The translations under genes were made by a program, and so were the position numbers. Shown in pieces: positions 8,692-59,072 of a stretch of DNA of 64,000 nucleotides. The notes below the pieces were generated by a model. It was given only the letters and a program-made list of their open reading frames with translations, had not been told where the DNA came from and searched no databases. Location of the stretch: the NCBI GenBank assembly GCA_964430335.1, contig CAYSEN010000001.1:1653-65652 (forward strand), given 5' to 3'. The first letter of the stretch is position 1. Every line of letters starts with the position of its first letter. Source of the DNA: an uncultured Candidatus Saccharibacteria bacterium (GTDB taxonomy: Bacteria; Patescibacteriota; Minisyncoccia; Phycocordibacterales; SIBU01).

Positions 8692-9126
8692 CTATAGAGT
8701 TATTTTTCTCGTCTGGTCGTCAACAAATTCAAAATTCATTTTTATAGTATCGTCGGGCAATACATCGGCGACTAAATCTGCCCACTCAATCAAAATTAGA
8801 TTTTTAGGATTTTTTAAAATATTATCGATTCCCAATTTTCTCAATTCATCACCACCCTTCAAACGATAAGCGTCGATGTGTATCAAAGTGTCAAAACGAG
8901 AGTATGAAATTTTGTAAAATTTCATTATGACAAAAGTCGGGCTAGTGATTTGTTCTTTCACGCCAAAGGCCTCCGCTACATATTGCACAAAAGTGGTCTT
9001 ACCAGCGCCCAAATTTCCCACAAGGCCGACAACAGTGGCGCCACTTCTTTCACTTTCTACAATGATCTCACGTAAGGCCTCAACTGCCCCCTTGGTCTCT
9101 TCTAAACTTTTACTGAAAATATCCAT
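8692..9126 (-). CDS. tsaE: tRNA t6A37 biosynthesis ATPase TsaE
   Basis: GNLGAGKTTFVQ P-loop, SPTF and HIDAYRL motifs. ATG at 9126 preferred because the longer ORF (to 9159) runs into the upstream terminator T-tract. Confidence 0.85.
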   Translation of the reverse strand: MDIFSKSLEETKGAVEALREIIVESERSGATVVGLVGNLGAGKTTFVQYVAEAFGVKEQITSPTFVIMKFYKISYSRFDTLIHIDAYRLKGGDELRKLGIDNILKNPKNLILIEWADLVADVLPDDTIKMNFEFVDDQTRKITL

Positions 9127-9167
9127 AAGCGAAATTGTAGCATATACATTTTTTCCCAAAAGAAAAA

Positions 9168-9192
9168 GGCACTTCGATAATCTCGAAGTGCC
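9168..9192 (-). terminator. intrinsic terminator of the high-GC lipoprotein gene
   Basis: ggcacttcga-taatc-tcgaagtgcc, followed on the minus strand by tttttcttttggg. Confidence 0.75.
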
Positions 9193-9213
9193 CGCGTAAA
9201 TTTTGAAGTTGGC

Positions 9214-9789
9214 TTATGGGCCAACTCGGTACCGCCTGATGGGCCCGGGACCATTGAGGTCCCGGATCTCCCGGATTCCTCCGGGAGATCCCCAGTAACG
9301 GTACCCTCCAGGGGGCGTGGGTGGTTCCCAACTGTATCCAGGAACCGTACCACCCTGTGGAAGCACGACCGGGACAGCTGGTGGTGTCATGACAACACCT
9401 TGAGGTGGCTGGGACCAAACCTGCCCTGGAGGAGGCGTGGCCCAGCTTCGCTGGGGACCAAAATTGAACTGTCCGTTCGATCCTGCTTGCGCCTGCTGTG
9501 CAGACGCAAGCCCGTTGGTGCGAGCGTACTCATGCTCACGACGCTCGTACTCCATCTTCACCATCGCCTCCTCGTGTCGGAGGCGTGCCTCCTGCAGTGA
9601 CCGGACATGCCGGTCGTATTGCTTGCCGCCATTTTCTAGCACCCTCTGTTCGGGCTCTTGCCCAAACTGATAGGGGCCCTGTCCACGAACGGCGCGGACG
9701 TGCTCGACCCGTGGGGTCGACGAACAACCGGCGAGAAGTACGGCCATTGTGGCGACGATGACCGAACCGATGAATTTAAAGGTCTTCAT
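9214..9789 (-). CDS. lipoprotein, Pro/Gly-rich C-terminal half, high-GC (foreign composition)
   Basis: Signal peptide with lipobox VLLAGC. 38/60 G+C at 9301-9360 against ~35% in neighbouring genes. Overlapping ORFs in other frames are shadow ORFs. Confidence 0.7.
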   Translation of the reverse strand: MKTFKFIGSVIVATMAVLLAGCSSTPRVEHVRAVRGQGPYQFGQEPEQRVLENGGKQYDRHVRSLQEARLRHEEAMVKMEYERREHEYARTNGLASAQQAQAGSNGQFNFGPQRSWATPPPGQVWSQPPQGVVMTPPAVPVVLPQGGTVPGYSWEPPTPPGGYRYWGSPGGIREIRDLNGPGPIRRYRVGP

Positions 9790-9973
9790 AACACAGAATT
9801 TCTGTAATGGAGCATTTTGCTCCGGGTTGAATTGCAGGCGGATTTGCCTAATATAATAATAGCATTATTTGTGCTAAATGTCAATACATAGTTGGGCTCT
9901 AATCGCCTTGTTTTCCAACATTTTTTAGCCTTTTCCATTTGTGTAAAGATATAAAAAAAGCTAAAATCTTTGC

Positions 9974-11650
9974 ATGGTAATTCAATTTGACGAGGACAAA
10001 CAAAATCAAAAACTCGACACTCTCCGAAAAAAAGAAGAAGAAGACTTCGCAAAGGACACCGCTGAAAGACTTGGACTTGAATACATAAACCTAATTCTTG
10101 TACCCATAAACACCGAGGCACTAAAATTGGTGCCCGAGCAACAAGCCAGACAGGCGAAAATTGCCCCTTTTAACATTGTCGGAAAAAAAGTTCAGGTTGC
10201 AGTCTCCTCCCCCGAATCAAGCGCTACAGCAGAGGTTTTAGAATCACTATCGAAAAGCGGTTACAGCTTGATCGTGTTTGTAACAACTCACGAAAGCCTA
10301 GAAAAAGCTTGGGGCTACTACAAAGATCTTTCATACTCAACAGAATCGACCGCAGGAGCGCTCGACGTTTCAAGTGATGAAATCGGTCAGTTTCTATCTA
10401 AGGTACACTCCATTAAAGATATTGGTACCCTCATTGAAGATATACTTGCTCAGAAAAAAAGTTACAGAATCTCTCGCTTGATTGAGATCGTCCTTGCCGG
10501 AGCAATAGCAACACACGCTTCGGATATTCACATAGAACCAGAAGAAGGTTACGCAAGGCTCCGCTACAGACTTGATGGGGTTTTAAACGATGTTCTCAAA
10601 TTTGATAAGGAGACTTTTGACTTAGCCCTATCTAGAATCAAATTGCTTTCTGGTCTAAAGCTAAATGTTAAATCTGAAGCTCAGGACGGAAGATTTAGTG
10701 TAAAAATAAACGGTGATGATATTGAAATAAGAACCTCCCTGCTCCCAGGAGCTTACAGCGAATCAGTGGTAATGAGAATTCTTAACCCTAAATCGATCAA
10801 TGTGCCGATCGAATCGCTCGGCATTAACCCAAAACTTTTGGAAATTTTGCTACATGAAATTAGTAAACCTCACGGTATGATTCTCACCACAGGTCCTACA
10901 GGTAGCGGTAAAACTACAACGCTCTACGCTTTCCTTAAAAAAATTCACACTCCAGACATAAAGATTATTACGATTGAAGATCCTATCGAGTATCACTTAC
11001 CAGGAATTGTGCAAACTCAAACAAATTCTGAGAAGGGGTACACTTTCCTAGAAGGATTACGTAGCGCGCTTCGACAAGACCCAGACGTGATCATGGTTGG
11101 TGAAATCAGAGACAGCGAAACAGCTGAAATCGCAGTGAACGCCGCCGAAACAGGACACTTAGTGTTCTCTACTCTTCACACTAATACTGCAGCTGGTACA
11201 TTCCCACGCCTCGTAGACCTCGGAGTGAATCCAAAAACCATGGCCTCAGCAATCAATGTATCGATGGCTCAAAGATTGGTAAGAACCCTGTGCAAGGATT
11301 GTAAAAAAGAAGTTGCGATTACCGGAAAAGAAAAAACTCTGATTGATAACATCGTCGCCTCCCTTCCAGATCAAAGCGAAGTTACAAACACTGAAAAAAT
11401 GTGGGTTGAAAATGGTTGTGACAAATGCAATCACACAGGTTTTAAAGGAAGAGTCGGAATATATGAGGCAATTTTAATGAATGAAGTAATAGAAACCGTA
11501 GTAAGAGAAAATCCTAGTGAAAGAGAAATTCAAAAAGCTGCTCTACCACAAAAAATTCCGACAATGAAACAGGATGGAATCATAAAAGTCCTAAACGGTA
11601 CGACTTCCTTAGGAGAATTATCAAGAATAGTCGACCTAGAAAAAGAATAA
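9974..11650 (+). CDS. pilB: type II secretion/type IV pilus assembly ATPase (GspE/PilB family)
   Basis: Walker A GPTGSGKTTTLYA, Asp box, Walker B VIMVGEIRD, His box LVFSTLHTN, tetracysteine CKDC...CDKC. Confidence 0.85.
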   Translation: MVIQFDEDKQNQKLDTLRKKEEEDFAKDTAERLGLEYINLILVPINTEALKLVPEQQARQAKIAPFNIVGKKVQVAVSSPESSATAEVLESLSKSGYSLIVFVTTHESLEKAWGYYKDLSYSTESTAGALDVSSDEIGQFLSKVHSIKDIGTLIEDILAQKKSYRISRLIEIVLAGAIATHASDIHIEPEEGYARLRYRLDGVLNDVLKFDKETFDLALSRIKLLSGLKLNVKSEAQDGRFSVKINGDDIEIRTSLLPGAYSESVVMRILNPKSINVPIESLGINPKLLEILLHEISKPHGMILTTGPTGSGKTTTLYAFLKKIHTPDIKIITIEDPIEYHLPGIVQTQTNSEKGYTFLEGLRSALRQDPDVIMVGEIRDSETAEIAVNAAETGHLVFSTLHTNTAAGTFPRLVDLGVNPKTMASAINVSMAQRLVRTLCKDCKKEVAITGKEKTLIDNIVASLPDQSEVTNTEKMWVENGCDKCNHTGFKGRVGIYEAILMNEVIETVVRENPSEREIQKAALPQKIPTMKQDGIIKVLNGTTSLGELSRIVDLEKE

Positions 11651-11666
11651 CTTGCAAAAAATTGAA

Positions 11667-11700
11667 CAATACCGGCTCGACATGTGTCGAGCCGGTATTG
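11667..11700 (+). terminator. intrinsic terminator after the pilB-like gene
   Basis: caataccggctcgaca / tgtcgagccggtattg near-perfect palindrome, followed by a T-rich tail. Confidence 0.8.
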
Positions 11701-12078: not shown

Positions 12079-13158
12079 ATGTCAAGAAAGTCTAACACAA
12101 AACGAGCAGAAAATGACTCCGAAGAAAACAACACACCTGATGAAAAAACCATAAAAGACAAGGTTTTTTCGGACGATGAAGGTTTTTTAGATCAAACTCT
12201 AAGACCAAGTCATTGGGACGAATATATCGGTCAAAAAAATATTAAGGAGAATTTGAGGATTCTTTTGACCGCTGCCGCTGAAAGAAAACACCCGCCGGAG
12301 CATCTTTTGTTTTACGGCCCTCCAGGATTGGGAAAAACTACCCTCGCCCACCTCATTGCCAAGGAAATTGGTGCACAAATCAAGATAACTTCAGGACCTG
12401 CCATTGAAAAAGTTGGAGATTTAGCATCCGTACTTACAAATTTGTCACCAGGAGACATTCTTTTTATCGATGAAATTCACCGTCTCAACAAAGCTATCGA
12501 GGAAGTGCTATATCCAGCAATGGAATCTGGTCAGCTCGACATCATAATCGGCAAAGGTCCATCAGCCCGCACAATCCAACTTGAACTTCCTCCTTTTACT
12601 CTAATCGCCGCAACTACACGCATCGCACTTCTCTCTTCCCCGCTACGATCACGCTTTGGCGGAGGAGTTTTCAGACTCGAATTTTATTCTGATGAAGAAA
12701 TAGAGGAAATTGTAAAAAGATCTGCAAAAATTTTAGGAGTGGCGGTAGAAAAAACCGCCTCGCAAGAAATTGCCAAGAGAAGTCGTTTCACTCCAAGAAC
12801 TGCAAACTATCTTTTAAAACGAGCCCGAGATTTTGCTCAGGTGAACAAAGGTGATCTTACAAAAGAGATCGTTGATAAATCACTAGCACTGCTCGGAATC
12901 GATGAGCTTGGACTTGGGCACTCAGACAGAGCGCTTCTAAATACACTTATAGAAAAATTTAACGGTGGCCCTGTTGGACTAAACACTTTAGCAGCAGCTC
13001 TTTCTGAGGAGCAAGCAACCATAGAAGAAGTTCATGAACCCTACCTTCTCCAACTTGGCCTGATCGAACGCACACCGAGAGGACGTGTCGCATCCGAAAA
13101 AGCATATCGTCATCTCAAAATCTCCGTTCCAAAAAATCTTCAAGAAAAGCTCCTGTAA
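12079..13158 (+). CDS. ruvB: Holliday junction branch migration ATPase RuvB
   Basis: LLFYGPPGLGKTTLAHLIA, Walker B ILFIDEIHRL and other RuvB-specific motifs. ~30-aa charged N-terminal extension. Confidence 0.95.
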   Translation: MSRKSNTKRAENDSEENNTPDEKTIKDKVFSDDEGFLDQTLRPSHWDEYIGQKNIKENLRILLTAAAERKHPPEHLLFYGPPGLGKTTLAHLIAKEIGAQIKITSGPAIEKVGDLASVLTNLSPGDILFIDEIHRLNKAIEEVLYPAMESGQLDIIIGKGPSARTIQLELPPFTLIAATTRIALLSSPLRSRFGGGVFRLEFYSDEEIEEIVKRSAKILGVAVEKTASQEIAKRSRFTPRTANYLLKRARDFAQVNKGDLTKEIVDKSLALLGIDELGLGHSDRALLNTLIEKFNGGPVGLNTLAAALSEEQATIEEVHEPYLLQLGLIERTPRGRVASEKAYRHLKISVPKNLQEKLL

Positions 13159-13165
13159 AACAGCC

Positions 13166-13208
13166 AAAATAAAAGCCGCCGCGACAAGGTCGCGGCGGCT
13201 TTTATTTT
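13166..13208 (+). terminator. intrinsic terminator after ruvB
   Basis: aaaataaaagccgccgcga-caagg-tcgcggcggcttttatttt. Confidence 0.85.
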
Positions 13209-13482
13209 TGTGTGCCGAAGAGAGAGATTGCGATCCAAAAAGGTTGAACCTTTTTGGATCTAAACACACATTTCACTCTGCATTTTGTGGGCTTGTGACC
13301 AGCATCAATCTCAAAGTTAAATATTTAGAATGATGGCTGCATTAAAATGTGGAGAATTTTCATCCAGCACAAATCACTTTGTGATGGATTAACCCTAAAT
13401 CGAAACTTGAGATTCTCCCGAACTCACGCTTCTCTTAACCTTCGCGGACTTTTATAAGGAGGTCCGCACCCCGTGAAATAGA

Positions 13483-13791
13483 TCAACCGCCTTGGCTGAC
13501 CCATCGCTTGGCGGCATCAAGAGCCTCTCCAGCGTTCTCGAAACAGACAATGTCCGTTTCGTTGTGCCAGAACTTAATCTGGTCTGTGGCGTTCGCCAGC
13601 GCATCCAGCACCTCGGCGTCCGTCACTATTTTTCGAGTCGGGTGTAAACCCCGACCGAAGAAGCGTTCGAAACAACCTTCGGAACCTCGAACGCCTGAAA
13701 TCTGGAATGTTCGGTCACCAACCTTCCATTCCAGAGATTTCCGATTCCCCTCCACCCAAATGCGGAGGAGGGCTAGTTGTGTGGTGTTCAT
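13483..13791 (-). CDS. hypothetical protein (high-GC island gene e)
   Basis: 102-aa ORF with island composition, same strand as the other island genes. No motif recognised. Confidence 0.55.
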   Translation of the reverse strand: MNTTQLALLRIWVEGNRKSLEWKVGDRTFQISGVRGSEGCFERFFGRGLHPTRKIVTDAEVLDALANATDQIKFWHNETDIVCFENAGEALDAAKRWVSQGG

Positions 13792-13816
13792 AATGAACAG
13801 GGTGTGGGGTAAAGCC

Positions 13817-14197
13817 CTACACCAACGAGATCAGACAGACCTCTTTTTCCGTCATGTCACCCATACACCCGTAAGGGCAGTGGCCCTTTGGGGTGACATC
13901 GTAATCGTAGGAGATTCCAATGTTGCCGCAAATGCAGCAGCCTCCTCCTGGGACCCACCACACACCGGCGATGGGTTGAAAAACTCCCGTAGGAGTCAGA
14001 TAGGCCAGGAGTCCTTCGGATTCCTGGCCGCTATAGACAAGACGCTTTTTTGCAGCGTCTAGCACGGGGACACACTCTTCCCCCTGTGTTACTGAGCCGT
14101 CGGCCCAGTAACAGACGTAGCGAGGAATCTCGTTCCTCGCCTGAAGAGAACGAAGCAATGCTTCGATCTCTTTTTTTGATTTTGTTGAACTACTCAT
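13817..14197 (-). CDS. hypothetical Cys-rich protein (high-GC island gene d)
   Basis: 126-aa ORF with clustered cysteines (GGGCCICG, HCPYGCMG). No family recognised. Confidence 0.55.
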   Translation of the reverse strand: MSSSTKSKKEIEALLRSLQARNEIPRYVCYWADGSVTQGEECVPVLDAAKKRLVYSGQESEGLLAYLTPTGVFQPIAGVWWVPGGGCCICGNIGISYDYDVTPKGHCPYGCMGDMTEKEVCLISLV

Positions 14198-14285
14198 AGA
14201 ATTTCATTTTCGAAAAATCAAAAACAAAATTCTATGAGTAGTGCTGAATACTGTCTTTAGATTTACCAACGTTTTGATAAACCCA

Positions 14286-14335
14286 ATAAACAGGAGAAGT
14301 TGTAACCGCAACTTCTCCAAACCTAACGACAATTT
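14286..14335 (-). repeat. island hairpin element, copy 1 (terminator-like)
   Basis: 10-bp stem ggagaagttg/caacttctcc with a 6-nt loop. ~50 nt near-identical to 16058-16109. Confidence 0.85.
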
Positions 14336-14481
14336 TTTCTCGGGATAGTCGTCCTTCCCATGACACTGCATGTCAGGCCACACCATTTAGAACGGTGGCA
14401 ACTTTCCAGCATTTTTCATGCCGGACTTTTACGCACTTCTGTTACGAAGGTGGTGCGATCCTTCGGATGTCTTTCCATCAG

Positions 14482-14805
14482 TCAGAGAGTGACGCGGATA
14501 GCCACAACCTCGTCGTCCGCACTGCATTTGAATATACCAAGTACCTGTTCAAGGCCGTTTGTGCGACGTTGAAAGTCTTGGTCATCATTTGCATTGTGAC
14601 GATTGGTGGCATTTTCATGCGCAGTCTTCGGGAAAAAACAAACGCAATAAACGCTGTCGTTCCAAAAACCTGAACATGAATCCTCATCACTCTCTCCCTC
14701 CAAAATCGCTTCTGGCACATAAGTGAAATCAAATGTACCGAAGGTATTTCGAGCAATCTTTATTGCCCGAATGATCTCAGAGGGATTAAGGCTAACTTCC
14801 TTCAT
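14482..14805 (-). CDS. hypothetical protein (high-GC island gene c)
   Basis: ATG at 14805 is preceded by GGGAGGAGAG at 7-nt spacing. The ORF-track version extends to 14874. Confidence 0.55.
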   Translation of the reverse strand: MKEVSLNPSEIIRAIKIARNTFGTFDFTYVPEAILEGESDEDSCSGFWNDSVYCVCFFPKTAHENATNRHNANDDQDFQRRTNGLEQVLGIFKCSADDEVVAIRVTL

Positions 14806-14923
14806 GGAAGCTCTCCTCCCACTTTTTTCACTGAAGTGGCAAACCGTCGAATGCAGTTCCGCCAAACAGCTCACGTTTTACGATAGGCAGTGAGGGCCTT
14901 TGAGAGACTGACGGTCTCTCAAA

Positions 14924-15853
14924 CTACTTGAGGTACTTCGTGAGCACCTCAACCACCCGCTCGACTGAAAGGGTCGAGCTGACACCCTGAGGGCTTCCGC
15001 CGATGGTCGGGGAACCTCCCCAACCCGGCTCGAGGGTCGCCAACTCGGCGAGCGCGGACTTGATGTCCGCGTACTTGCTGGCCTCGAAGGCGCAGATCGT
15101 GAACTTCCGGTGGGGCTCTCCCGCCCCGAGCCGAAAGCTCGGGTTGAGCGCCACCACGACCGGCGCCAGCGCATAGCCAACCGACGTGGCGGCGCGGTGC
15201 GTCGACTCGACGACCGCAATGCACCCGCCGGCACAAACCTCGTGCCGAATCGCTCCGCTCTCAAGAGCGGCGATCATGTCGGCGCGCTCGCGCTCAACCT
15301 GAGCGCGATAGTTGCCCGGCTCCTCGCCGGTCAACAACCACTTTTCCATAGTGGCGACCCGCTCCCCGAGTGGGATCTTGAAGTCCGCAACCGCCGCCGC
15401 AATCGCGGCGAGCGGTCGGGACGATTCGGCCCCTGCCGAGCTATCGTCCCACGGGCTGCCCCGGGTCGGGAGGGGTTTCGGGCCGGTGTACCCGCCACGT
15501 GCGAACTTGTCGGCGGCGGCAACCATACTGATCCGATCCATCGCGGACTCGAGACCTTCGCCCTTCGCCCGGATGTTGAAGATCGCCATCGCCCCAACAC
15601 TGTCGAGGTCGGCTCGCACAGTGACCAATGTCGCCCTCTCGGCCGGGATCTCTACCGTCAGCGCGGCCTCGATGGCCGAGCTGTTGGCGTCTCCTTCCGA
15701 TCCGTGCTGGGGGTCGAGGTTGTACACGCACCGAGCCGCAAGGCTCGGGACGGTCACCTCGATTCCGAACACCTGCCCGGACGAGAAAACCTTCTCGTTC
15801 GCCTCAGAGGCGGCCGGAAGATTGCGGGGATCCAGAATTGCAAAATGAAACAT
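14924..15853 (-). CDS. hypothetical protein, 309 aa (high-GC island gene b)
   Basis: Longest island ORF with sensible amino-acid composition, whereas overlapping frames are Arg/Pro/Gly-rich shadow ORFs. ATG at 15853 preceded by AGGTGA. Only a loose DHH/DHHA1-like motif spacing (RADLDSVGA ... GWGGSPTIGG). Confidence 0.65.
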   Translation of the reverse strand: MFHFAILDPRNLPAASEANEKVFSSGQVFGIEVTVPSLAARCVYNLDPQHGSEGDANSSAIEAALTVEIPAERATLVTVRADLDSVGAMAIFNIRAKGEGLESAMDRISMVAAADKFARGGYTGPKPLPTRGSPWDDSSAGAESSRPLAAIAAAVADFKIPLGERVATMEKWLLTGEEPGNYRAQVERERADMIAALESGAIRHEVCAGGCIAVVESTHRAATSVGYALAPVVVALNPSFRLGAGEPHRKFTICAFEASKYADIKSALAELATLEPGWGGSPTIGGSPQGVSSTLSVERVVEVLTKYLK

Positions 15854-16057
15854 TTTGTAATTCACCTATCTTCAAACAAAAGCAAAAAAATGTGACTATT
15901 TTGGTACACACTTATTTTGTTCTCACAAAACGCGGGTTTCTAAGTCGCGAATTGTGCCTGAATCGGATTTGTCGACAAGTGAGCGGGGGTCTAGACTGTC
16001 CCCATTCACCTGTCGAAACCAATTCGTGTCTACAGACTGGCAAAATTTGTCAGCCTG

Positions 16058-16109
16058 ATAAACAGGAGAAGTTGTAACCACAACTTCTCCAAAACCCGTG
16101 CGACAATTT
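16058..16109 (-). repeat. island hairpin element, copy 2
   Basis: Same stem as copy 1, with one loop difference (taacca vs taaccg). Flanks ataaaca... and ...cgacaattt are conserved. Confidence 0.85.
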
Positions 16110-16158
16110 ATCCATTTTGTGGAATAGGAAGTCGCCCTTCCTTTGTTGTTGGTCTGGA

Positions 16159-16557
16159 CTAGCGATATGTTGCATCTTTCCAGACTGTAAAACTACGACC
16201 TTCCGCGGTCGTAGTTTCGATGATCTGGTGACCGGGAGCTTCCCCGGTCTCAGCCAGAACCTCCTCATCCAGGCATTCCATCCTGGATGAAAGAGTGGTC
16301 AGCCGGAGATTCCCGGCCACGGCGAGTTTCTCGAACTCGCCGTTCATCTCGCGCAACTGCGCGAGACAGTAAGCCAGATGTTCTGGCGCATCTTCGACGC
16401 CTGTAGCATCGACCGATATCTCCGGACCGCACAGGCAGTCCGGAGATGTCTCATTCAGAAAGAGCAACTGCCCCCTCCGAACGAACCACAATTTCATTTT
16501 CATAAAATTGTAAAAAGGATGGTACCGCCAGCCAACATGGCCAGCGAACAAATACAA
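16159..16557 (-). CDS. hypothetical protein (high-GC island gene a)
   Basis: ORF of 114-132 aa. Start ambiguous: TTG at 16557 or ATG at 16503 (MKMKLWF...). Confidence 0.5.
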   Translation of the reverse strand: MYLFAGHVGWRYHPFYNFMKMKLWFVRRGQLLFLNETSPDCLCGPEISVDATGVEDAPEHLAYCLAQLREMNGEFEKLAVAGNLRLTTLSSRMECLDEEVLAETGEAPGHQIIETTTAEGRSFTVWKDATYR

Positions 16558-17189
16558 TCCCTCTTTCCGGCACTAAGTAAATCTAACGCCGGAGAAGAGG
16601 AATAACATTGCGGTTATTGCTTTGGCAAAATTTGTTCCGCCTTACTCCTTCCTCTCTATTTAGTTTTCAAATTACTTCCCTACTCTACCTATCACTTTCC
16701 GCAACTCGCGGACTTCCTGGTGTAAGGACATTTTGAAGTACAAAGTGGGTTAGACTTTACACTTCATCGATGTCCTGACGAGCCTTCTCGTCGACAACGG
16801 GCGATGAGTTTACCTTAAAGGTATATCTCCGTCATTTGGAATGGGTTTCGAAGCCAGACCATATGTAGAGCACTCATCATTCGAAACGAGATATTCAAAA
16901 GGCTGCCTCTCTCCCCACTCTCTCTTCTTTCCATACTTAGCCGCTTTCGCGGAGGCTATGGGACCTTCCCTTTCGGGCTAGAGGTGGGGGGCAATCTTTC
17001 GGCTATCTCCTGAACGAACTTGACTTTCTGGCAATAGAATATCTTAATTAGATAGCGAGTGTCAATTATTTATGACATAAAATGGCCGGTTATTGCAAAA
17101 TCTAGTAACAACATGGATTTTATGGCTTATCCACATATTACTATTGTCATATACTTGTGACAAAAACAGCTTTATGCTAGACTAAAAGT
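16558..17189. other. ORF-free, hairpin-dense region with strong purine/pyrimidine strand asymmetry (candidate leader/ncRNA or island end)
   Basis: No ORF of 60 aa or more. Helices at 16725-16776, 16777-16792 and 16941-16952. 26/27 pyrimidines at 16906-16932. DnaA box at 17127-17135. Confidence 0.4.
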
Positions 17190-58133: not shown

Positions 58134-59072
58134 GTGCGACACGTTATGAAAAACGAAATTGAGAGCCTAAAAAGGCAATTTTTGGAATATATCGAGATAG
58201 AAAAGGGCCGGGCTATAAGAACCGTAGAGAATTATGACCATTATTTGACGGTTTTTATCAGACAGACCAAGGTCAGCGGTCCTAAAGATATAACCGACGA
58301 CAACGTCAGGGATTTTCGTATTTGGTTGAATAGACAATCAAACGGCAATAACCGCGCCACTGGGGACACTATGAAAAAGAAGACCCAGAACTATTATCTA
58401 ATAGCTCTGAGGAGTTTTTTAAAGTTTTTGGCCAAAAGAGGTGTCACTGCCCTGCCGGCGGATCATATCGAACTAGCAAAGGTTGGAGAAAGGCAAATAG
58501 ATGTAATATCTAAGGATGAATTAAAAAGATTGTTTGATGCTCCAAACAAGGAAAAGAATCTAGAAAGAAAGTTTCGCGATAAAGCAATCTTGGAAATGTT
58601 GTTTTCCACTGGTTTGCGTGTTTCTGAGCTTTGCTCATTAACTAATGATCTTGATTTACGTTTAGATGAATTTTCTGTTAGAGGAAAAGGAGGCAAGGTC
58701 AGGGTTGTTTTTTTGTCCGATGAAGCTAGGCACTCAGTAAAGGAGTATCTGCACCTACGTAAAGACATGTCCAATGCGCTTTTTGTTAAATTAAGTGATG
58801 AAACAGCTAAAAATGGTGATGTTACAGGTTTAACTCGGCGATCTGTAGAAAGAATTGTAAAAAGATACGCAACTATTGCTGGAATCTCAAAAAAAGTCAC
58901 CCCTCACGTCATTCGTCATGTGTTTGCTACGGATTTGCTTTCAAATGGTGCTGATATAAGGTCTGTGCAGGCCATGTTGGGCCACGCAAATATAGGCACA
59001 ACTCAGATTTACACTCATGTTACCGACAAACACCTGCGAGACGTGCACAAAAAATTTCACAATAAAAGCTAA
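58134..59072 (+). CDS. tyrosine site-specific recombinase XerC/XerD family
   Basis: Catalytic region HVIRHVFATDLL and LGHANIGTTQIYTHV. Alternative ATG start at 58146. Confidence 0.85.
   Translation: MRHVMKNEIESLKRQFLEYIEIEKGRAIRTVENYDHYLTVFIRQTKVSGPKDITDDNVRDFRIWLNRQSNGNNRATGDTMKKKTQNYYLIALRSFLKFLAKRGVTALPADHIELAKVGERQIDVISKDELKRLFDAPNKEKNLERKFRDKAILEMLFSTGLRVSELCSLTNDLDLRLDEFSVRGKGGKVRVVFLSDEARHSVKEYLHLRKDMSNALFVKLSDETAKNGDVTGLTRRSVERIVKRYATIAGISKKVTPHVIRHVFATDLLSNGADIRSVQAMLGHANIGTTQIYTHVTDKHLRDVHKKFHNKS

Follow-up and report, generated by a model that had tools for sequence, protein, structure and literature searches.

Here we examine a short, GC-rich lipoprotein gene that lies on the minus strand between tsaE and a pilB-like gene in a 64,000-nt stretch of contig CAYSEN010000001.1 from an AT-rich Patescibacteria genome. 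We refer to the whole stretch as the window, and all coordinates are counted from its first nucleotide; the gap between tsaE and pilB is called the slot, contigs of relatives carry L-numbers, and family proteins carry P-numbers. An initial annotation made from the window alone had described an isolated high-GC gene at this position and proposed, given a larger high-GC island nearby, repeated acquisition from a similar donor. The features of the locus are listed below, with coding sequence abbreviated as CDS and the per-residue confidence of structure prediction (predicted local distance difference test) as pLDDT.

8692..9159, minus strand: tsaE, the downstream flank of the slot (PF02367 on the L001, L002, and L090 orthologues; GC 0.39)
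9157..9193, minus strand: intrinsic terminator, an 11-bp stem GGGCACTTCGA/TCGAAGTGCCT (9193-9167; inverted repeat I4) and then a T-run
9214..9789, minus strand: whole lipoprotein CDS, 191 aa plus stop, 60.9% GC and hairpin-dense
9217..9498, minus strand: residues 98-191, a hypervariable, disordered Pro/Gly/Gln/Trp-rich tail (pLDDT 41-54)
9264-9291, within the tail-coding region: perfect 12-bp palindrome GGATCTCCCGGA TTCC TCCGGGAGATCC with a 4-nt loop
9514..9624, minus strand: residues 56-92, a single long charged helix (AlphaFold2, pLDDT 92-95)
9625..9723, minus strand: residues 23-55, an extended segment by the membrane anchor, predicted non-helical (pLDDT 60-83)
9724..9789, minus strand: residues 1-22, signal peptide and lipobox (MKTFKFIGSVIVATMAVLLAG-C22), from the translated reading frame
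9790..9855, minus strand: AT-rich 5' leader of ~60 nt, with host-like GC of 0.36-0.45
9856..9884, minus strand: promoter, with -35 TTGACA (9884-9879), a 17-nt spacer, and a TG-extended -10 TATTAT (9861-9856)
9974..11650, plus strand: pilB-like T2SSE/MshEN ATPase gene, the divergent flank (PF05157 and PF00437 on the identical L001 gene)

The promoter is a near-consensus sigma70 element that matches 11 of 12 consensus positions in addition to the upstream TG, and its -35 hexamer and the string TGCTAnTAT vary little or not at all among six orthologues, whose protein identity goes as low as 38%. The leader has no clear Shine-Dalgarno sequence and contains a small hairpin, GGAGCAAAATGCTCC (9809-9823), that is kept in the window, L002, and L003. 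At the other end of the gene, the terminator stem (9193..9167, minus strand) is followed by TTTTTCTTTT and folds at -21 kcal/mol (z -3.8), in agreement with the dedicated intrinsic terminator that had been described. A near-consensus promoter and a terminator of its own make the lipoprotein gene a self-contained transcription unit, and these predicted signals mark it as genuine and separately transcribed. The start codon of the neighboring tsaE is probably the ATG at 9126.

The predicted product carries the lipobox VLLAGC/SS that had been noted in the 191-residue protein, with cleavage before Cys22 (LAG/C22), and it thus has the N-terminal signal peptide and lipobox that characterize substrates of Lgt and LspA. 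Within the protein family described below, at least 90% of 32 members keep G21 and C22, and a lipobox is present in 30 of 34. Family alignments delineate the motif Y-x-[FY]-G-Q-E-P-x-[QK]-R...G-G-[KR]-Q-Y in residues 23-55, and Q66, H72, A89, and G93 are invariant or nearly so. The charged helical middle and the Pro/Gly/Trp-rich tail reported earlier were recovered by AlphaFold2, run with a 32-sequence alignment (predicted template modelling score, pTM, 0.30), as the helix at residues 56-92 and the disordered region at 98-191; the model also predicts a signal-peptide helix at residues 3-20 and a non-helical stretch at 21-55. The tail is composed in large part of 19 Pro, 16 Gly, 9 Gln, and 4 Trp residues, with W-x-x-P-P-x-G-like motifs, and its coding region holds the inverted repeats I1, I5, I6, and I8 together with one arm of I2. 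The host is presumably a single-membrane cell.

GC in the lipoprotein open reading frame (ORF) is 60.9%, whereas the window averages 40.1% (standard deviation 4.75% for 576-bp windows), and GC of 60% or more is reached in just 1.1% of the 576-bp windows of the stretch. The earlier count of 38 G+C in 60 nt at 9301-9360 proved exact on recounting, and the flanks are host-like and low in GC, as stated at the time (tsaE 0.39; pilB-like gene 0.41, with GC at third codon positions, GC3, of 0.35). When measured in 60-nt windows, GC steps from 0.43 to 0.58-0.65 at ~9191 and is down to 0.37 at ~9761; the excess stays within the CDS, and the composition of the promoter, leader, and terminator is like that of the host. 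GC at the three codon positions is 0.70/0.52/0.61, and the third-position value lies 11 standard deviations over that of host genes (35 long window genes, with a GC3 of 0.355 +/- 0.023 and a range of 0.317-0.396). Were the same protein encoded with host codon frequencies, GC would be 0.50, so that amino-acid composition (Pro, Gly, Arg, and Ala), which lifts GC from 0.39 to 0.50, provides roughly half of the excess, and codon choice, in the form of G/C-ending and CGN codons, provides the other half up to the observed 0.61. AGA is used for none of the 18 Arg codons (57% in host genes), CGG makes up 33% of them (2% in host genes), and GAG and CAG are favored over GAA and CAA. The comparison of codon usage with the larger neighboring GC island that the initial annotation had outlined therefore gives a clear answer: usage in the lipoprotein gene is non-host, and its bias resembles that of the island's genes. 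Both junctions of the gene, also singled out earlier as points to verify, are 100% identical in L001, an independent JGI contig, and the gene order recurs in other assemblies; misassembly of the lipoprotein locus is excluded.

The arrangement in which polA and tsaE point away from the gap on one side, and pilB and ruvB on the other, is widely conserved, and this synteny matches 80 Patescibacteria metagenome-assembled genomes (MAGs). Relatives of PilB in GTDB genomes all belong to Patescibacteria MAGs (Paceibacteria, Parcubacteria, Taylorbacteria, Zambryskibacteria, and similar lineages; best identity 76%), and we assign the window and its slot-bearing relatives to the Paceibacteria/Parcubacteria. 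Members of the lipoprotein family occupy the slot, beside tsaE and/or pilB, in eleven contigs of independent assemblies (the window, L001, L002, L003, L009, L090, L091, L094, L095, L098, and L099), among which PilB identity to the window ranges from 100% to 58% (50% over a 102-residue fragment on L091) and identity of the lipoprotein core from 97% to ~35-45%. The lipoproteins of the window and L001 are 96-97% identical at the protein level, and L099, a 50-kb NCBI contig, retains the full synteny ruvC-yebC-ruvB-pilB / lipoprotein-tsaE-polA-holA.

The composition of the gene is conserved across these carriers. In eight low-GC lineages (L002, L003, L090, L091, L009, L094, L095, and L098) the gene has a GC of 0.53-0.63, whereas its flanks are at 0.38-0.48; gene GC3 is 0.53-0.63 in these lineages and 0.53-0.71 overall. 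The GC-rich L099 shows no contrast, with the gene at 0.605 GC (GC3 0.71) and the flanks at 0.56 GC (GC3 0.69-0.74). Across 13 loci gene GC averages 0.588 +/- 0.041 and hardly changes with flank GC (slope 0.14, r 0.21). At the same time, synonymous differences in tsaE, pilB, and polA are saturated or nearly so between the window and L002, L003, L090, and L009 (proportion of differing synonymous sites, pS, 0.69-0.82), and neutral third positions should therefore have reached host composition over this span, which those of the lipoprotein gene have not. Divergence of the lipoprotein is roughly parallel to that of the flanks, with the window and L002 closest in both, although the correlation is not significant (rho 0.54). 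Judged by these sequence comparisons, the lipoprotein gene is an old resident of the conserved tsaE-pilB slot, and its GC content (~0.59 +/- 0.04) is a gene-intrinsic trait that stays constant while host genomes span 0.38-0.56 GC. The contrast with the surrounding DNA is thus composition retained in genomes that are, or became, AT-rich, and not the mark of a recent import; the idea of repeated acquisition from a similar donor is contradicted by orthologues of equally high GC at the same locus in low-GC relatives.

The slot frequently holds other genes as well. At the GTDB loci L010-L089 the gap measures 29-4,838 bp and often contains unrelated small ORFs for lipoproteins or secreted proteins on the tsaE strand. 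At the 37 loci with a background GC3 below 0.42, every one of the 18 slot ORFs with a lipobox shows a GC3 excess above 0.1 (median +0.21), compared to only 7% of 343 non-slot ORFs (Mann-Whitney p = 6e-11); examples from low-GC genomes are L019 (GC 0.58 vs 0.38), L043 (GC3 0.77 vs 0.29), and L071 (GC 0.60 vs 0.39), while slot genes of GC-rich genomes show little GC3 excess. Most of these unrelated slot genes are hairpin-dense too, with folding z down to -10. Gene content thus indicates that the slot beside the pilus ATPase gene is one that collects variable lipoprotein genes. Lipoproteins outside the slot were scarce as a basis for comparison (three doubtful candidates in low-GC loci and no other lipobox ORF in the window), and high GC may be tied either to the locus or to small lipoproteins in general. 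The slot contains no repeats, attachment sites, integrase, or tRNA, and the window holds no second copy of any part of the lipoprotein gene, which is single-copy within these 64 kb.

Searched exhaustively with HMMER, 1.84 billion cluster representatives yielded 31 relatives of the lipoprotein, and a profile search of a 5.8-billion-protein database, the results of which were swamped by low-complexity words, added two members, for a family of ~33 clusters in all. Profiles from Pfam, NCBIfam, PHROGs, and PDB gave no match beyond the signal peptide, and there only below threshold. The members share a common plan of a lipobox, a conserved segment of ~75 residues with the motif Y-x-[FY]-G-Q-E-P-x-[KQ]-R...G-x-Q-Y-x-x-H-x-R-x-[LM]-Q-x-x-R-L-x-H-E-x-x-M-x-x-[MI]-E-Y...A-x-x-x-G, and a Pro/Gly/Tyr/Gln-rich tail. 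The core is 69-79% identical in close orthologues, with a ratio of nonsynonymous to synonymous substitution rates (dN/dS) of ~0.2, and the tails are not alignable between lineages and carry lineage-specific peptide repeats such as PGYTEGRNNY in P0002, GPGPQTYPA in P0003, and VVGxxxR in P0009. The C-terminal residue is Arg in 25 of 34 members, often as GRR, HRR, or RRR, and Lys in none of the 34, although Arg accounts for just 6% of tail residues; the window protein, which ends in ...RRYRVGP, is an exception. This recurrent Arg end despite hypervariable tails suggests a functional C-terminus, and because no hydrophobic segment precedes it, it is not a sorting signal of the sortase or exosortase type.

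A scan of GTDB genomes with the family core found no relative, and searches of IMG/VR, INPHARED, and PLSDB found no family member. When a hidden Markov model of the core was compared with all ORFs of the 80 GTDB loci, three weak matches were obtained (E 0.001-0.04), all of them in the slot; they are probably driven by the signal peptide and were not counted. P0019, P0023, and P0033 lie at loci other than the slot, the first of these next to genes for T4SS_pilin and DUF5671, both of them markers typical of Patescibacteria, and no family context recovered points to a donor outside Patescibacteria. In these searches the family appears to be small, previously undescribed, and so far present only in Patescibacteria-type contexts.

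A further property of the gene is its density of hairpins. We counted perfect hairpins (arm of at least 7, loop of 3-20) with no energy model, and compared folding with that of dinucleotide shuffles and of synonymous-codon shuffles, the latter of which preserve protein and codon usage. Against dinucleotide shuffles the lipoprotein CDS folds with z of -6.9 (-6.2 by the folding tool's own test), and against synonymous-codon shuffles with z of -4.2, while values for the flanking genes are -1.2 to +2.0 and the mean for sixteen 600-nt pilB segments from GC-rich relatives is -0.8. Each of the 13 family members tested has a negative z (-1.7 to -5.1; p = 1.5e-4 against 21 control segments), and this includes the L099 gene, which is hairpin-dense between flanks with z of ~0. 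Perfect hairpins number 7 in the window gene against 1.0 expected and 29 in the family against 8.4 expected, compared to 14 in controls, where 13.4 were expected. A high density of hairpins is thus a robust feature of the whole family. The palindrome at 9264-9291 overlaps a second hairpin, of 8 bp, at 9245-9265; in the L001 allele the 9264-9291 stem is only 7 bp long, and four changes in seven bases separate it from the 12-bp palindrome at the cost of a single Val to Ile replacement.

Differences between the window and L001 are concentrated in two patches. The two contigs are identical over all 1,677 bp of pilB, over the terminator and the intergenic DNA, and over the 68-codon polA fragment on L001. 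The lipoprotein gene differs by 26 substitutions, all within 9228-9589, and two 3-bp indels; 23 of the substitutions and both indels fall in the tail-coding part. A further 9 differing sites lie in tsaE, within 8820-9019. The differences are mostly synonymous (lipoprotein dN 0.016 and dS 0.15; tsaE dS 0.09), and several clusters of them fall in hairpin arms. This clustering fits recombination tracts, template-switch mutation, or both, and the patches at 8820-9019 and 9228-9589 point to recombination tracts or to a local hotspot of diversity among strains.

With some hesitation, we lean toward the interpretation that this is an old, strongly promoted lipoprotein gene in which a GC-rich, hairpin-dense CDS is a conserved trait, and whose product combines a Cys22 anchor, a conserved motif and helix, and a disordered tail that evolves fast. 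In its mature form the protein would be anchored by a lipid at Cys22, after which come the membrane-proximal YxFGQEP motif and the 37-residue charged helix, which may oligomerise, and the lineage-specific, disordered Pro/Gly/aromatic tail of ~95 residues would reach into or through the cell envelope. High GC may be kept by selection on the coding nucleic acid together with protein composition, for instance if an abundant lipoprotein is made, like E. coli Lpp, from a transcript that is stable and strongly folded. By analogy with Lpp and the Mycoplasma lipoproteins, we infer an abundant component of the envelope or surface (a tether, shield, or adhesin), the exposed tail of which could be under diversifying pressure. 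A role in host interaction is plausible.

Several observations weigh against this interpretation. None of the 80 GTDB species representatives retrieved, one of which has 76% PilB identity, carries a family member in the slot, and gain or loss there must consequently have occurred; on the presence of the gene in sister genomes, which the initial annotation had raised, the outcome is therefore divided, with carriers among ten other contigs and a patchy distribution beyond them. Synonymous divergence (dS) of the lipoprotein core is ~1.1 between the window and L002/L003, compared to more than 3 for the flanks, and this could mean later exchange of the lipoprotein gene between lineages. Folding of the sense strand is not significantly stronger than that of the antisense strand (z -4.5 vs -4.0, p = 0.11). 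As the antisense strand folds almost equally, the signal derives from Watson-Crick inverted repeats, and an origin at the level of DNA or by mutation (template switching) is as likely as selection on mRNA. RNAalifold found no hairpin positionally conserved across orthologues (-2 kcal/mol), and with no Rfam match at E <= 1 a conserved RNA element inside the CDS was rejected. Third-position GC is 0.64 in perfect arms and 0.62 elsewhere (p = 0.69), and the idea of hairpin arms as a direct driver of GC3 found no support. Finally, Lgt and LspA were not found among the 28 ORFs of the window that were scanned with Pfam.

One may postulate alternative scenarios in which the GC content of the gene has an external source. 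A single ancient transfer from a very GC-rich donor to the common ancestor of the slot lineages, with vertical descent and incomplete parallel drift thereafter, would be in keeping with the non-host codons (GC3 11 standard deviations over host genes, CGG at 33% vs 2%, and no AGA), with their resemblance to those of nearby island genes, and with the patchy distribution of a family that the slots of 80 GTDB representatives lack. We consider this distinctly unlikely, however, given that GC3 is still 0.53-0.63 in eight low-GC lineages despite flank pS of 0.69-0.82, that the excess ends exactly with the CDS and the conserved promoter is AT-rich, that none of the family contexts recovered from 1.84 billion representatives points to a donor outside Patescibacteria, and that in L099, a genome of 0.56 GC, the composition of the gene is that of a native one. 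The slot could alternatively be a hotspot at which GC-rich, hairpin-dense lipoprotein cassettes are repeatedly inserted or converted from a mobile Patescibacteria pool, be it phage, a conjugative element, or GC-rich relatives, so that foreign composition would be supplied again and again. The consistent GC3 excess of unrelated slot lipoprotein ORFs (18 of 18 above 0.1, vs 7% of 343 non-slot ORFs), the location of window-L001 differences in the lipoprotein gene (26 and 2 indels) and tsaE (9), a lipoprotein-core dS below that of the flanks, the same GC and hairpin pattern in the neighboring and probably mobile island, and the occurrence of P0019 and P0033 elsewhere, P0019 adjoining T4SS-pilin genes, speak for this scenario. 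Set against these are a slot free of repeats, attachment sites, integrase, and tRNA, the lack of any family member in IMG/VR, INPHARED, and PLSDB, a lipoprotein divergence that roughly tracks the flanks (again with a rho of 0.54 that is not significant), and a promoter conserved together with the gene, and we regard this scenario too as decidedly improbable.

Other processes could in principle raise GC locally. The clustered allelic differences in the lipoprotein gene and tsaE suggest recombination tracts, and GC-biased gene conversion at a recombination hotspot might follow from these. Effects reported for biased conversion in bacteria amount to a few percent, however, whereas GC here is raised by 20-25 points, with sharp limits at the ends of the CDS; tsaE bears a tract and yet has host-like GC, and the excess of hairpins would be left unexplained, all of which makes this account very improbable. 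GC-rich, strongly folding DNA in an AT-rich genome is also the classic signature by which structured RNAs are found, and the locus has this signature. That it is a structured non-coding RNA or an assembly artefact, and not a protein gene, is nevertheless scarcely credible: the lipobox and core are conserved with dN/dS of ~0.2 and indels that stay in frame, there is neither an Rfam match at the gathering threshold or at E <= 1 nor a conserved RNA structure, and the same arrangement is present in more than ten independent assemblies. A broader proposition, which we put forward as speculative and on the whole unlikely, is that AT-rich Paceibacteria carry a distinct class of GC-rich, hairpin-dense genes whose composition is actively held through nucleic-acid secondary structure, by selection or by mutation. 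Its members would be the slot lipoprotein genes and the neighboring island that ends in a twister ribozyme, and the mechanisms might be mRNA stabilisation or processing, or hairpin-templated diversification of surface-protein tails. If this proposition is true, a GC island here would be a functional signature and not evidence of transfer.

Our preferred interpretation of an old gene with conserved composition can be compared with known systems. Early sequencing papers reportedly describe lpp mRNA as having extensive secondary structure. This mRNA is exceptionally stable, with a half-life of 11.5 min where the average is 1.3 min (PMC10260701). The window protein resembles Lpp and OprI in being a small lipoprotein with one long helix, encoded by a monocistronic gene with a strong promoter and terminator and a highly folded mRNA, and the extreme C-terminus is basic in most family members. 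It differs in that it lacks alanine-zipper heptads and has a disordered tail of ~95 residues, and Lpp profiles match the signal peptide only (residues 7-33; NF040598 at 13.9 bits vs a cutoff of 43, PRK15396 at 12.5 vs 108); the C-terminal Lys of Lpp is cross-linked to peptidoglycan, whereas the window protein ends in ...RVGP and the family mostly in Arg. The Mycoplasma Vlp and Vsa lipoproteins are likewise from small, AT-rich, host-dependent bacteria and combine a conserved N-terminus with a low-complexity, lineage-specific, repetitive C-terminal region, but the window gene is GC-rich and single-copy in the window, with no evident homopolymer tract for phase variation. In the tail-coding parts of the genes from the window, L002, L003, and L090, Tandem Repeats Finder detected no tandem repeats, its sole hit being a 2.1-copy unit of 10 bp in the signal-peptide region of L090, and an origin of the tails by slippage was set aside on this basis.

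The closest compositional parallel is the surface-lipoprotein locus vls of Borrelia, which has a GC of ~49% in a genome of ~28.6%, a difference attributed to selection, together with a GC skew of ~0.52, G-runs, and silent cassettes for gene conversion (PMC11499132). The window gene is similar in having a GC far above that of its genome (0.61 vs 0.40), and differs in its coding-strand skew of 0.02, the lack of a G-quadruplex (G4) motif, and the lack of a second copy within 64 kb. A vls-like mechanism was rejected for want of GC skew and G4 motif, and a diversity-generating retroelement or silent cassettes because the window has no second copy, although reverse transcriptase was not systematically sought. 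Finally, a recent genomic islet would share with the lipoprotein gene its atypical GC and codon usage, single-gene extent, and patchy distribution, but the lipoprotein gene keeps both locus and composition across lineages in which flanking synonymous sites are saturated, and it has neither mobility features nor an identified outside donor.

The neighboring GC island and some other parts of the window merit brief description. A full-length match to the type-P1 twister ribozyme (RF03160) lies at 13270-13348 on the minus strand, between the ruvB stop codon and the first island ORF, at the 3' end of the island's minus-strand genes; its conserved core nucleotides align, and its score of 50.5 bits is below the gathering threshold of 67.2 (E 1.5e-10 to 3.4e-9). 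Folding is strong in thirteen consecutive 300-nt windows at 12901-16800 (z -3.5 to -14; window-wide median -0.3), including the AT-rich segment 14101-14400 (GC 0.41, z -14). The four island ORFs tested have synonymous-shuffle z of -4.7 to -10.3 and 2-10 perfect hairpins compared to 0.5-2.5 expected, and in this respect the island and the lipoprotein gene are alike, in line with the similarity that the initial annotation had suggested. None of five island ORFs has a Pfam match, and 16159-16557, an ORF with a TTG start and z of -10 to -15, may represent a structured RNA instead of a gene. A homologue of the island ORF 13483-13791, 49.5% identical, is present downstream of ruvB in a Nomurabacteria MAG (L051 10002-10304), where the N-terminus of the 313-aa island protein comes next, at the end of the locus (11603-11668), and the island may thus recur at the same position in a distant relative. 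Elsewhere in the window, a PrgI-family protein (PF12666; 37772-38200, minus strand) adjoins ORFs of 609-1045 aa at ~35-45 kb, probably a type IV secretion or conjugation-like cluster of Patescibacteria, and a tyrosine recombinase (Phage_integrase with a SAM-like N-terminal domain; 58134-59072, plus strand) lies ~3 kb from three tRNA genes (Arg, Gly, and Pro) at 61905-63394 and could be XerC/D or the integrase of a mobile element.

GC islands in the small, AT-rich genomes of symbionts are routinely read as transfer, and the old, syntenic gene described here is a caution against doing so in Patescibacteria. A lipoprotein with a disordered tail is a familiar type of protein, but a transfer-like gene that is syntenic, compositionally constant, and hairpin-dense is unusual, and the hairpin density that it has in common with the ribozyme-bearing island offers a testable handle on how such genes are maintained. 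For the biology of these uncultured episymbionts, the slot lipoproteins would be good candidates for proteins of the envelope or of host contact.

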